DNA of 43,825 nucleotides. Source: Opitutales bacterium. GTDB taxonomy: Bacteria; Verrucomicrobiota; Verrucomicrobiia; Opitutales; Coraliomargaritaceae. Below are positions 6,001-9,000 of this stretch, piece after piece. A program made the position numbers. The stretch lies in the NCBI GenBank assembly GCA_049598495.1, contig JBMYNR010000012.1:1-43825 (forward strand), given 5' to 3'. Position 1 is the stretch's first letter. Each line of letters starts with the position of its first letter.

Positions 6001-9000
6001 GTTGTTATCGTCGACAAGGATCAGGAGAAGGCGCTGAAAGAAGTGCTCGTTTAGATGGAATAAGGGAAGCAGGAAACAAGGAAGATGGAACTGGAGAAAC
6101 TAACCGAAAAAGTAATCGGTTGCGCCATCAGAGTCCACAGATCACTCGGTCCCGGCTTTCTGGAGAGCATCTACGAGAATGCCCTCAAGGTTGAATTAAA
6201 GCTCAGCAATCTGGATTTCGAACATCAAAAGGAATTACCCGTCGTATACAATGGCCACGAGGTCGGCAGCCATCGCTACGACATATTGGTTTCCGGCCAA
6301 CTTATCGTGGAGCTCAAGGCAATTTCCGCATTACAAGACATCCACTTCGTACAAGTCCGTAGTTATCTAACCGCACTCAACCTTAAACACGGCCTGCTCC
6401 TAAAATTTTCGACCATGCCACTGACTATCAAGCGAGTGATTCGCTAATGTCTTTCATGCTTTCCTGCTTTCCTAATTCATACCCGCCGATTCTAAAATGA
6501 ATACCGCGATCATATACAGACTACTTAGCATGGTCTTGCTCGCACTCTCAGGAGCCTTTCTCCTTTGCATTGCGGTCGGCCTGATCATGGGCGAGACACT
6601 CAGCAGCCCCTCATTGAAGGCCTTTGAGATCACTATTGGGGTTGCGATCGGTTTGTCAGTGATCTTTCACCTGCTCGGCCGCAGGGGGAAGGCGAAGCTC
6701 TTCCGCCGGGAAGCGCTCTGCGCAATTGGCCTTTCCTGGATCTTAGCGACGCTGATCGGCGCGATTCCCTATATCCTAACGGTGCGTTGCGACTTATCCG
6801 ATGGTCTCTTTGAAAGTGCCTCCGGACTGACCACGACGGGGGCGACCGCCTTCAATAACTTCGCCGAGTTTCCTGCCAGCCTACTTTTCTGGCGATCGCT
6901 CAGCCAATGGGTCGGCGGCCTTGGGGTCGTCGTTTTTTTCGTCGCCATCCTTAGTTCATTGGGTGCGGGCGCAAAGATTCTCTTCAGTAATGAATCCTCC
7001 GGCACCTCAGCGGATTTTGACCAAGGGCGCATTCAAAAAGGTGCCCGGGATCTGATGCTCTTTTATCTGGGTATTTCCGGTGCCTGTGTCCTTGCTTACC
7101 GGATTGGAGGGATGGACTGGTTTCAAGCCATCAACCATGCCATGACGACCGTAGCCACCGGTGGTTTCAGCACCGAGGCCGATAGCATCGGGGCCTTCCA
7201 AAGCGCAACCATCGAATGGATCGCGATCATCTTCATGGCGCTGAGCGCGACAACCTTTGTTTACATGATTCGACTCATTCGCGGTCGCTTCCACACAGCG
7301 ACACAAAACCGTGAAATCTTTTGGTTCTATACCATGCTCGTCGCCAGCACCGGTTTGTTAACTCTCTACCTGGTGGAACTCACGGGTAAATTGCCAAACG
7401 CCGACAGTATCCGCACTGCGGCCTTCCAAGCCACCTCAATCATGACGACAACGGGATATTCGTCCGTCGATTTCGACGCCTGGTTGGCACCTGCCAAAAT
7501 GCTGCTCATCATCCTTATGTTCATCGGAGGTTGCTCGGGTTCCACGGCCGGTGGCGTCAAGGTCGTTCGAATCGTCATCGCCCTTCGCGCGGCAGCTCGA
7601 AGTGTCGCCCAGGCGTTTCGCCCCAATGTGACGATTCCGATGCGCATGGGCGGCCAGCATCTCAGTGAGAACGCCATTCATAATGTCATCCTTTTTCTTG
7701 TATTGATGGCAGCACTACAGATATTCTCGATGCTCTTCGTTTCTGCACTGGAACCGAGCATAAGTTTTCTCGGGGTTTTCTCATGCGTGCAAGCGACCCT
7801 CTTTAATATCGGACCCGGCTTTGAGGCTGTTGGGCCAACCGAGAATTTCCACTTTCTACGGCCAACGACAAAGGTGTTCCTTAGCCTACTGATGATCCTC
7901 GGCCGCCTCGAACTCTATGCCGTGATGGTGCTCTTCATCCCTACCGTGTGGCGACGCTTCTCTTGAGCGGCCGGAGACTGCTCAAGAGAAGCGGAGGACG
8001 GATAGCTGAGGACAAATGGCCGAAACAGAAGTCACAGAGCCATCATTCATCCGTCATTTTCATCCGCCATCACTCATCATTCATCATCCCCACGGCGTAG
8101 CCATGCAATCGTCGCGCCCCAAGCGCCCTCCCCCTGGCCTGCTAACTCGAAGTGTTCCACACACGGATTCTTGCGTAAGATTGCGTGCACCCTGTCTCGC
8201 AAGGTGCCGATACCCTTCCCGTGGATGATCCTTACCCGAAAGAAGCCCTTATCCTGAGCTAGCTCGATGTAGTCAGGCACGAGTTCACCGACCTCCGAAG
8301 GGCGAAAGGTATGCAGATCGAGCTCATCGGTGATCTCGAATTCGATTGGTTCTTCGGAACTCTCAGGCATACGCGCTGCTCCATTTCCAATCGGCAGGCT
8401 TTCTACAGAAGCCCGCCTTTACAGGGTTCATGTGAATATAATCGACGACATCATCGAAATGTTTTTCGTTGCGTATGTAACGATCCCAATACTCTGGATG
8501 CCATAATGGAGATTTGGCTGTTGTCCCGGGATCGCGAATCTCCGTATTCGCTCTAAGCCATTTCTGGATCTCCGTCGCGGTAAACTTTTTCCAAGAAGCT
8601 ACAATCTTCGCCATCGACCAATCTGATAATGGTTGAAAGAGAACATGAAAGTGATTTGGCATGACACACCACGCTAGGAGTCGGTAACGTAGGCCATCAA
8701 AGTGCAGAAAGGCATTTTCCACGATTTCAGCGCAAGCAGTCTCACGCAGATGGCAGGCCCCGTGCCCAGCATCGATCCATTCATTGAGCCGTATTCGTCG
8801 CTCAACAGCCCGCTCCTCGTCGGGCATCGCTTCAATCCTCTCATCAATGCGTTTAATCACCGACTTTGGTAAGCTATCCGCTAAATGCACAGTGACATGC
8901 TGGATATGCGTTCCACTATCGAAATGCGGGATGTAGCCTCGCGAATTCCAGCCTCTGGAGCAGCTCGGGAGAGCTGCGGTCCCGGGATCGCGAATCTCCG

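Follow-up and report, generated by a model that had tools for sequence, protein, structure and literature searches.

Why does a single small nuclease-like gene, bracketed by an inverted repeat, stand between trkA and trkH in a marine Opitutales bacterium with a genome of 1.75 Mb, and to what kind of genetic element does it belong? The window considered here is the whole stretch of DNA that was analysed, 43,825 nucleotides in length, and every feature described below is read on its forward strand. The upstream host gene, trkA (4708-6054; Pfam TrkA_N and TrkA_C), ends in a TAG stop codon at 6052-6054, 3 nt before a purine-rich 5' arm (6058-6083). This arm is composed of words of about 8 nt, GGGAAGCA GGAAACAA GGAAG, and ends 1 nt before the start of an open reading frame (ORF) of 120 amino acids (6085-6447) that encodes a GxxExxY protein of the PD-(D/E)XK nuclease fold. 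The 3' arm (6453-6478) begins 5 nt past the stop codon and is a pyrimidine-rich inverted copy of the first. It is followed by a tail of 18 nt (6479-6496), missing from the empty sites of the closest relatives, and then by the start of the downstream host gene, trkH (6497-7966; Pfam TrkH). An earlier note on this DNA had placed the cassette at 6055-6496 between the two genes, and the Pfam and NCBIfam matches, the arms and the fold all agree with that position. The insert thus measures 442 nt and consists of a 26-nt arm, the 120-residue GxxExxY gene and the inverted arm. By inverted-repeat search the 26-nt arms are 81% complementary, and in the minimum-energy fold of 6040-6510 their stem encloses the whole ORF. 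Since the fold of the region as a whole reaches a z of only -1.31, the signal sits in the arms and not in the region. One stem position is variable: 6066 is G in this assembly, giving a G·U pair with the 3' arm, and A in two sequencing runs, giving A-U.

The window protein matches PF13366 (PDDEXK_3) with 131.2 bits (E 3e-38; cut-off 22) and TIGR04256 (GxxExxY) with 136 bits (cut-off 35). In a 25-sequence alignment that includes it, G24, E27, Y30, D66, E76 and K78 are invariant; both the GxxExxY motif and the catalytic D...ExK signature typical of PD-(D/E)XK nucleases are thus intact. An AlphaFold2 model (pLDDT 95, pTM 0.86) predicts a restriction-endonuclease-like fold. Its nearest solved fold is Cas4 SSO0001 (Z 8.2, rmsd 3.2, 98 aligned), further matches are BpuSI (Z 7.7), Hjc (Z 7.2) and restriction enzymes, and every top solved structural match is a PD-(D/E)XK nuclease. 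The best Foldseek E-value was only 6e-3, and a PDB search with the protein sequence returned no relative (best E 0.55). Among the PADLOC defence-system models, the window protein and both four-helix proteins examined found no match, and the other two GxxExxY proteins showed only a weak Cas4 likeness (E 1e-4 to 4e-3). The available excerpt of PMC3424549 gives the function of the GxxExxY family as 'Unknown'. The earlier note counts it among the gene families otherwise met in 23S rRNA intervening sequences.

The cassette is one of a set. The earlier note had counted 19 loci in this genome, 11 intact and 8 decayed, and profile searches carried out independently arrive at the same totals: 13 matches to PF13366 resolve into 10 loci (6 intact, 4 broken), while a four-helix-bundle cargo of the S23p/Avd-like kind, PF05635 / TIGR02436, occupies 9 (5 intact, 4 broken or partial). 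These results support single-gene cassettes with two cargo families and one shared architecture. The operon neighbours named earlier are confirmed by NCBIfam, except that the gene upstream of ccsB gave no hit (E <= 1e-10) and the hit for ccsB itself fell below the curated cut-off. Co-orientation with both neighbours, previously put at 18 of 19 loci, has to be revised to 16 of the 18 at which both neighbours are visible in our own ORF calls; at P8 and A7 the upstream gene is divergent, A3 is situated where its contig ends, and no cassette is antisense to both neighbours. Random insertion would predict a fraction of 0.325 (p = 1e-6). Among the four-helix loci of relatives, 21 of 24 likewise have a co-oriented upstream gene, and purines prevail in the 5' arm of the sense strand at 40 loci versus 9, although the orientation and polarity counts draw on partly related loci and their p-values are overstated for that reason. 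Orientation and purine-rich 5' arm together favour a strand-specific role. No third cargo family emerged among stretches of 400-900 nt bounded by inverted repeats; what these contain is host genes, a fragment of an IS (DUF772) or ORFs that match nothing in Pfam, and in none of them is a small conserved gene flanked by arms of tandem words.

Could the arms be no more than low-complexity spacer repeats that happen to be complementary? The low complexity is real, as is the weak z of the whole region, and duplex energies computed with wide flanks are noisy and overlap the background (p = 4.6e-5). For that reason an inverted-repeat score was used in their place, in which the 5' flank is locally aligned to the reverse complement of the 3' flank, with all greedily called ORFs of at least 80 amino acids tested alike. 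Across 1559 background genes the score averages 6.5 (sd 1.1) and never exceeds 13.0; the window cassette scores 15.0, a value reached by 0 of the 1559. Ten of the 19 loci lie above the entire background and 14 are matched by at most 10 background genes (cassette loci versus background, Mann-Whitney p = 1.6e-13). The arms are weak at five loci (A8, A9, A4, P1 and P6), of which P6 reaches 16.5 once the flanks are widened, its arms being placed at a greater distance. A genome-wide scan found 74 inverted repeats scoring at least 16 versus 5 in a shuffled genome, the same architecture surrounds homologues in other families and phyla, and the arms are conserved across orthologues whose synonymous sites are saturated. 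An accident of composition is refuted by these observations and can be given next to no credence. At the cassette loci the arms adjoin the start and stop codons and typically comprise three words with a period of 9-10 nt, the word being specific to each ORF lineage. The arms had been described as copy-specific; they do differ between lineages, but they belong to the ORF lineage and are conserved in orthologues. Many GxxExxY lineages also have the ends (T)TAACCGC...GCGGTTA(A) in common. That broken copies keep their arms, as claimed before, is seen at P10 (31 of 32) and P9 (32 of 37).

That the trkA-trkH cassette is an insertion, as the earlier note proposed, is borne out by relatives: the junction is free of a cassette in 23 of 23 loci that hold both genes, and in the closest relatives trkH starts only 2-3 nt past the trkA stop codon. 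The cassette was therefore inserted between trkA and trkH in the present lineage. It is found in three DNA sequencing runs, as a single spanning contig in two and as three separate pieces in X19, and none of the four runs examined contained an empty-site joint. A cassette-free strain, considered on account of a word share of 0.62 in many runs, was not borne out by X9, which yields a full-length contig with 14 substitutions. A 193-nt contig from X20 (6000-6192) bridges the end of trkA and the cassette; that this run is RNA is a guess, and a contig does not reveal transcript ends, so it is unusable as RNA evidence. The junctions compared revealed no target-site duplication, though a short one could have escaped notice, as the genomes with the nearest empty sites share only about 80% protein identity. 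Neither TTAA nor ATG qualifies as one, as the flanking bases extend the inverted repeat (GGAA...TTCC, GAA...TTC) and are not direct repeats.

Comparison of homologous cassettes at different sites offers a view of what moves. The nearest relative of the window protein (66% amino acid identity) is found at locus L097 of another Opitutales genome, between genes for NAD synthase and an aminotransferase, and is flanked by the same arm words; the likeness continues through the 3' arm to about 6482 (ATTCATAC) and then ends. L097 is also the site of the one tandem arrangement of cassettes. A second lineage, of the L069 type (73-94% amino acid identity), sits at gatA-gatB in G005, G148, G021, G230 and G010, and at pheS-pheT in G367, G020, G413, G326 and the present genome; G021 and G367, with the two different sites, belong to one genus. 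Between lineages the gatA-gatB cassettes are 47-62% identical versus 87-89% for gatA, a disparity that points to replacement of cassettes at one site. Cassettes unrelated to these occur at the same junctions, alongside decayed copies, solo hairpins, nested arms, scraps of arms and, in one case, an empty spacer of 23 nt. The arms travel and are passed on together with their gene, a small number of junctions is occupied time and again, and the cassettes cycle through intact, frameshifted, gene-less hairpin and empty states. Of 40 relatives, 20 carry both families, 5 only one and 15 neither. Within the present genome the 19 loci span all stages of decay, and its paralogues are mutually only 30-58% identical in amino acid sequence.

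The window itself contains gene-less structures. At 4536-4655, between an aldose-epimerase-like gene and trkA, a hairpin with arms of ATGAATGA / TCATTCAT words encloses a loop of about 37 nt (fold of 4530-4660, -39.6 kcal/mol) and most likely represents what is left of a cassette. A solo hairpin with the same words occupies the corresponding place in G010, and the shared words and junction support orthology of the two; other relatives have different arms or a four-helix cassette upstream of trkA. Descent from the four-helix cassette L120 of G005 was considered and rejected, as L120 is not at that junction. Downstream of trkH a weaker, putative remnant (7995-8095) has the same CATCATTCATCC words, with a fold of 7985-8100 of -25.8 kcal/mol. 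Near the start of the window (237-325) lies a gene-less tandem-repeat hairpin of AGAATTAAGAAAGAAGAGAGA and its inverse with a 31-nt loop (inverted-repeat scan score 19; fold of 230-330, -28.9 kcal/mol).

Both parts of the cassette are constrained. For the genes, pN is 0.03-0.18 versus a pS of 0.55-0.96; in orthologues, arm identity is 0.83 and 0.78 versus 0.42 for third codon positions and 0.33 for the spacer between stop codon and arm; the arms are conserved as strongly as first codon positions. To judge from these substitution patterns, purifying selection keeps both the gene and the arms. Paired cells amount to 84.9% versus 80.9 +/- 0.9 in shuffles and the covariation score to 0.115 versus 0.067, with 0 of 500 shuffles reaching either value, although related sequences can exceed shuffles even without structure; arm partners slid out of register pair in only 36-48% of cells. 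Pairs changed on both sides do not exceed shuffles (7 versus 5.6; 120 of 500 reach), and at two positions of the stem 9 of 12 orthologues lack a pair. Across 48 stems, sense-strand G·U mismatches (44) are no more frequent than A·C (58), next to 109 transversion mismatches. As a selected RNA helix would be expected to show an excess of G·U, its absence counts against an RNA stem. Moreover, it is the arm sequence and not just its pairing that is conserved, in words that each lineage has for its own, a pattern more reminiscent of sites recognised by a protein than of a helix alone.

The account that is modestly favoured is that of a class of single-gene cassettes, selfish and now and then mobile, that share the build of the ORF-bearing intervening sequences (IVS) of 23S rRNA, reside in the spacers of protein-coding operons and act through a predicted RNA stem. 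The cassette would have no promoter of its own and would be transcribed by read-through from the host operon. Ribosomes could use its purine-rich 5' arm at the start codon as a landing site only as long as the 3' arm has not been made; once it has, the arms would pair into a stem of 25-30 bp with the gene as its loop, and translation of the nuclease would be shut off. By analogy with the rRNA IVS, the stem may also be a substrate of RNase III, for which the genome encodes rnc; the operon transcript would then be freed of the insert, or the insert rendered harmless within it, and the host would tolerate it. Alternatively, the arms may act on DNA, as terminal inverted repeats of protein-binding words that are read on double-stranded or hairpinned single-stranded DNA by the protein that the cassette encodes or by a factor of the host, which would excise, insert or exchange the cassette much as happens with a transposon, homing element or recombination cassette. 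The RNA stem would then be a by-product, and co-orientation would come about only because a gene that lacks a promoter has to be transcribed, or because insertion at replication forks is strand-specific. Such a reading gains from the missing G·U excess, from the conserved end motif and the lineage-specific three-word arms, and from homologous cassettes at different sites being alike only to the outer ends of the arms; the nested and tandem arrangements fit it too, as does a PD-(D/E)XK cargo with an intact active site and the size and predicted fold of Hjc. It is weakened by flanks that extend the repeat in inverted orientation with no target-site duplication at the junctions compared, by a unit that holds no known transposase or integrase family, and by a four-helix cargo that lacks a catalytic fold yet has identical architecture. 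The low identity of the paralogues implies no recent burst, and a purine bias of the 5' arm across unrelated words is unexpected for a symmetric site on double-stranded DNA. An arm function on DNA is accordingly regarded as possible, if on the doubtful side.

The preferred account of a selfish, RNA-stem cassette must also be set against domestication, under which stem and protein serve the host and are inherited vertically; they might, for instance, uncouple the two halves of an operon transcript or give them different stabilities, or supply a nuclease for defence or repair. The gatA-gatB cassette is kept across several genera under strong purifying selection with synonymous sites saturated, and the two families co-occur in half of the 40 relatives, as a host function might lead one to expect. 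Their distribution is nevertheless patchy, the 15 relatives without either family including small genomes of the same genus; 8 of the 19 copies in this genome have decayed, a given junction may be occupied by unrelated cassettes or hairpin remnants or stand empty, the host contexts have no function in common, and defence models return nothing beyond the weak Cas4 likeness. A host-serving module is thus very unlikely. A bolder proposal, advanced tentatively and rather improbable as it stands, is that the rRNA IVS are just the most conspicuous members of a separate class of mobile elements that colonise both rRNA and housekeeping-operon transcripts. Each cassette protein would read its own arm words on folded RNA or single-stranded DNA and so drive excision, exchange between occupied junctions or self-limited expression, by a new mechanism of mobility or processing that is neither transposon, intron nor integron.

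A literature search found no paper on such cassettes outside rRNA, and the group is apparently both widespread and undescribed. If the favoured account is correct, GxxExxY and the S23p four-helix bundle, two large families of unknown function, would gain a context as cargo of one cassette type. The thirty-year-old puzzle of the rRNA IVS would become testable, with the IVS as one habitat of a wider element that also occupies the gatCAB, pheST, nuo, gyrBA and trkAH operons. Genome annotation and operon models would have to account for inserts that part genes translationally coupled in relatives (at trkA-trkH, 3 nt of spacer in relatives versus 442 nt here) and that would impose RNA processing sites inside essential operons. 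The 19 loci of the present genome offer a compact natural series for the cassette life cycle.

Several known systems invite comparison. Free-standing homing endonuclease genes, such as the seg and mob genes of T-even phages, resemble the cassettes in that a lone small nuclease gene lies between conserved co-oriented genes and is present or absent among relatives, with different genes at the same junction and a cycle of invasion, decay and loss. To our knowledge they are without bracketing inverted repeats; the T-even phage enzymes belong to the GIY-YIG and HNH families and not to GxxExxY, and the four-helix cargo has no nuclease fold at all. With insertion sequences and MITEs the cassettes share terminal inverted repeats with a conserved end motif, occupancy of different sites and gene-less derivatives. 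They differ from these in that the unit holds only PF13366 or PF05635 and no known transposase, near-identical copies are absent (30-58% amino acid identity), no target-site duplication is seen at the junctions compared, and the arms vary by lineage, are built of tandem words and are placed between co-directional genes. Integron cassettes are promoterless, co-oriented single genes read from an outside promoter, and their attC recombination site is defined more by its fold than by its sequence. The present cassettes are likewise single, co-oriented and presumably promoterless, and in one instance (L097) tandem; unlike them, integron cassettes have a hairpin 3' of the gene in place of inverted halves that flank it, and stand in an array beside an integrase, whereas the present ones are scattered in housekeeping operons and form no such array, though no search was aimed at an integrase.

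The closest likeness in build, proposed in the earlier note and borne out by the anatomy of the Coxiella element, is to the ORF-bearing 23S rRNA IVS. According to the available excerpt of PMC4990558, terminal inverted repeats of the helix-45 IVS of Coxiella burnetii form a 28-bp stem that is cut by RNase III in its middle, and AGAAGA followed by three tandem GACAGAT heptamers directly precedes the ORF; the same excerpt cites ORF-bearing IVS in Leptospira and others. As far as that description extends, both kinds of element are about 430-450 nt long and have terminal repeats that pair over about 26-30 bp and leave the ORF in the loop, as well as an AG-rich 5' arm of short tandem repeats that ends at the ORF start. 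In both, the ORF lies on the sense strand of the host transcript and often decays while the stem persists, and the IVS family PF05635 / TIGR02436 is the cargo at 9 loci of the present genome. No 23S rRNA gene is contained in this assembly, and the only 23S match obtained in five relatives searched, the other four of them with gaps in the available sequence, has no insert (G035, 2787 nt); Rfam matched no family at five other cassette loci. Excision by RNase III has been demonstrated for the rRNA IVS and would have to be presumed for the operon cassettes. Where the two differ is in the cargo of the window, which is GxxExxY and not the S23p four-helix bundle, and in the host, which is the mRNA of the trkA-trkH operon and not helix 25 or 45 of 23S rRNA; a cut in such an mRNA would separate cistrons rather than fragment a ribosome.

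The entire spacer between trkA (4708-6054) and trkH (6497-7966), window 6055-6496, is filled by one small gene and the two arms that flank it. The gene (6085-6447) encodes a 120-residue protein matching PF13366 (PDDEXK_3, 131.2 bits) and TIGR04256 (GxxExxY, 136 bits). The 26-nt 5' arm (6058-6083), composed of purine-rich words some 8 nt long (GGGAAGCA GGAAACAA GGAAG), starts 3 nt past the trkA stop and ends 1 nt ahead of the ATG, and the 26-nt 3' arm (6453-6478) starts 5 nt past the stop codon of the gene. The arms are 81% complementary, and in the minimum-energy fold of 6040-6510 their stem encloses the whole ORF. 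In relatives whose TrkA is 50-80% identical, trkA and trkH are adjacent, with only a stop, 3 nt and a start as spacer in the closest genomes. The cassette is absent from all 23 relatives' loci holding both genes, which bears out the insertion proposed in the earlier note. All three DNA sequencing runs contain the cassette, two of them in a single spanning contig; run X19 has it in three separate pieces only, leaving about 6127-6293 and 6638-6767 uncovered. In these runs one strain differs by 14 substitutions over 1201 nt, one of which, 6066 G>A, converts a G·U position of the stem to A-U, and no cassette-free joint was found among the contigs of the runs examined. The feature at 6055-6496 is real, and its reading as an inserted cassette is well supported.

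Residues G24, E27, Y30, D66, E76 and K78 are the same in all 25 family members compared, the window protein among them. Its AlphaFold2 model is confident (pLDDT 95), and the structural neighbours are all PD-(D/E)XK nucleases, among them Cas4 SSO0001 (Z 8.2) and the nuclease domain of BpuSI (Z 7.7), followed by Hjc (Z 7.2), restriction enzymes and a splicing endonuclease (Z 6.2), with none standing out. Sequence search found no relative of solved structure, and defence-system models gave only a weak likeness to Cas4.

Since the fold energy of the whole region (6040-6510) is unremarkable (z = -1.31) and duplex energies over wide flanks are noisy, the arms were scored instead by the best local alignment of the 5' flank with the reverse complement of the 3' flank, for all greedy ORFs of at least 80 amino acids genome-wide. 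The window cassette scores 15.0, compared with a maximum of 13.0 among 1559 background genes (mean 6.5, sd 1.1). Ten of the 19 cassette loci lie above the whole background, at 14 no more than ten background genes match or beat the score, and five (A8, A9, A4, P1 and P6) are weak by this measure; the overall difference is strong (Mann-Whitney p = 1.6e-13). A genome-wide scan returned 74 inverted repeats of score at least 16, versus 5 in a block-shuffled genome.

The loci comprise ten of the GxxExxY family (13 PF13366 matches; six intact, four broken) and nine of the four-helix family (PF05635; five intact, four broken or partial), in agreement with the counts first noted. Operon neighbours are confirmed by NCBIfam at accD|folC, gatA|gatB, metK|ahcY, trkA|trkH, tmk|patB, pheS|pheT, plsC|purM, leuB|alaS, gltB|gltD, nuoF|nuoG, nuoJ|nuoK, nadK|cca and gyrB|gyrA, and for genes beside prfA, ubiB, ccsB and wecA; the gene upstream of ccsB lacks a match. 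The claimed co-orientation with both neighbours at 18 of 19 loci becomes 16 of the 18 with both neighbours visible under our own ORF calls; none is antisense to both, and random insertion would give a co-oriented fraction of 0.325 (p = 1e-6). Identity among the six intact GxxExxY proteins is only 30-58%, so no burst of copying has taken place recently.

Individual copies vary in layout. At gyrB|gyrA (A5, C31:5112-5615), the 3' end of the four-helix ORF takes in the 3' arm (GATTTCGATTTGGATTTCGATTTGG), which is read as an acidic tail of DFDL repeats; the two arms agree at 37 of 38 positions. At accD|folC (P1, C2:104562-105002), the GxxExxY gene is intact, the 5' arm is recognisable (ACAACCGCCTCGCTCTAGCGCGG), the 3' arm is absent and the stop codon overlaps the folC start; the matching arm word occurs 3' of the gene in its relatives L090 and L093. 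Among 40 relatives' genomes (G001-G040), 20 hold both cargo families, one GxxExxY alone, four the four-helix family alone and 15 neither, so that the two families co-occur; small genomes within the genus mostly lack both, versus 19 loci in this 1.75-Mb genome.

Sequence comparison indicates that the arms move together with the gene as a single unit. The closest relative of the window protein (66% at the amino acid level), locus L097 of another Opitutales assembly, has the same arm words (GAATAAGGAAAGCAGGAAAGC) but is set between genes for an NAD synthase and a class-III aminotransferase; the two cassettes resemble each other in DNA sequence from the outer end of the 5' arm to just beyond that of the 3' arm, where the likeness stops. 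Cassettes of a second lineage, L069-type (73-94% at the amino acid level; arms TTAACCGC-AGAG-nn-CGCTGAGG-n-CGCAGAGAG), occupy gatA|gatB in G005, G148, G021, G230 and G010 and pheS|pheT in G367, G020, G413 and G326, with G021 and G367 belonging to the same genus and a frameshifted copy at pheS|pheT in this genome. More distant relatives of this type sit at nuoF|nuoG and resB-like|ccsB in other families, junctions that hold other cassettes here. At L097:2880-3140, the arm and gene are followed by a second, direct copy of the 5' arm, a short second ORF (partly N) and, last, the inverted arm, a two-gene or tandem cassette. Treponema assemblies (L098, L099, L106) also carry GxxExxY cassettes, with arms of CACAGATGGGA words, after a purM-like gene and before an apparent purN, and thus a purine-synthesis junction is used in a different phylum too.

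At gatA|gatB, gatA is 87-89% identical across all genomes compared; cassette identity is only 47-62% between this genome, G011 and the G010/G005/G021 trio, and 90-94% inside the trio. The same junctions turn over and also occur in gene-less states: hairpins standing alone (112-130 nt) whose arm words differ (G010, G148, G367), arms of one lineage nested in those of another (G021, 265 nt; G311, 181 nt), a scrap of an arm (G230) and an empty 23-nt spacer (G413). In the 265-nt pheS|pheT spacer of G021 (L168), outer arms TTGACCGCAGAATTCG.../...CTCTGCGGTAAA enclose inner arms CGTTAATGGACCTGAATTAACG.../...AACGTTCATTAACGG with no gene, apparently one cassette inserted within another. The window has gene-less hairpins built in the same style at 237-325, upstream of trkA at 4536-4655 and, less distinctly, at 7995-8095; the corresponding site upstream of trkA in G010 also carries a solo hairpin, and its words match. 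Also upstream of trkA, at about 4655-4700, a motif (AACTCTGGAAATGC ... GTCACAAT) is kept in most relatives (L040-L053) within a variable spacer, a possible promoter or operator for the trk operon.

Other repeats are present. Since the genome is rich in REP-like hairpins starting GTAG (e.g. GGTAGGGACGCCTGCCC...), these may form a REP-associated transposase system with the 263-aa ORF at 8363-9154 (-), whose Y1 transposase domain is IS200-like (PF01797, E 3e-8) and whose N-terminal part contains repeated peptide words (RANTEIRDPGTAALPSCS), as if repeat DNA had been inserted. Four copies of an element of 400-470 nt, its terminal inverted repeats conserved (GGTTCATCGTCAAAGT...), lie at C51:3582-4040, C2:83195-83702, C1:97109-97618 and C4:25939-26385; their ORFs of 79-113 aa have no Pfam match. 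A second family has TTAGAGCCGATTGCATTTAGGTAGAA ends (C4:56708, C24:3661, C61:4644, C39:9279, C33:15702). Both look like MITEs distinct from the cassettes.

Substitution patterns indicate that gene and arms are both under selection. L069-type orthologues differ at 0.03-0.18 per non-synonymous site and 0.55-0.96 per synonymous site (saturated). Across 11 intact sequences, mean pairwise identity is 0.83 for the 5' arm and 0.78 for the 3' arm, whereas third codon positions reach 0.42 and the spacer from stop to 3' arm 0.33. For 32 stem pairs in 12 sequences, standard pairs fill 84.9% of cells versus 80.9 +/- 0.9 in 500 shuffles (reached by none), the covariation score is 0.115 versus 0.067 (none) and 15 cells are altered on both sides versus 8.4 (reached by two), although kinship among sequences alone can outdo shuffles without any structure. 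Pairing falls to 36-48% when the partner is slid by 1-3 columns. On the other hand, the seven stem pairs with changes on both sides are no excess over shuffles (120 of 500 reach this), and two stem positions are unpaired in nine of the 12 sequences.

The arms may act in RNA, as a stem cut by RNase III, or in DNA, and the two roles are compatible. Four observations point to a strand-specific role linked to the host transcript: the cassettes are co-oriented with their neighbours (16 of 18), at 21 of 24 four-helix loci of relatives the gene upstream points the same way, the arms adjoin start and stop codons, and purines dominate the sense strand of the 5' arm at 40 loci versus 9, with very different arm words at loci that are non-independent. 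Against a selected RNA helix, and in favour of a role in DNA, 48 stems of score at least 13 have no wobble excess (sense-strand G·U 44, A·C 58, transversion mismatches 109). The lineage-specific words, three per arm with a 9-10 nt period, are moreover conserved in sequence in a manner that looks like protein recognition. With the strand signs set against the absent wobble excess and the word conservation, the RNA-stem/RNase III mechanism is given roughly an even chance and a DNA-level role is regarded as less likely.

Full-text literature searches turned up no account of cassettes of this kind outside rRNA. Excerpts of PMC3424549 and bioRxiv 10.1101/2024.02.27.582315 treat the GxxExxY and four-helix families as uncharacterised, and two other papers mention four-helix bundle proteins only in listing strain-specific genes. 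The nearest known system is the Coxiella burnetii 23S rRNA intervening sequence (IVS), for which excerpts of PMC4990558 describe an AG-rich stretch and three tandem GACAGAT heptamers directly before the S23p start, and a decaying ORF; the paper also cites earlier suggestions that mobile elements left IVSs behind as remnants. The cassettes here have the same anatomy, and nine loci of this genome encode the same protein family; they differ in residing in operon mRNAs rather than rRNA, and the window cassette carries a cargo other than the S23p family. The elements are best described as IVS-type cassettes living in operons.
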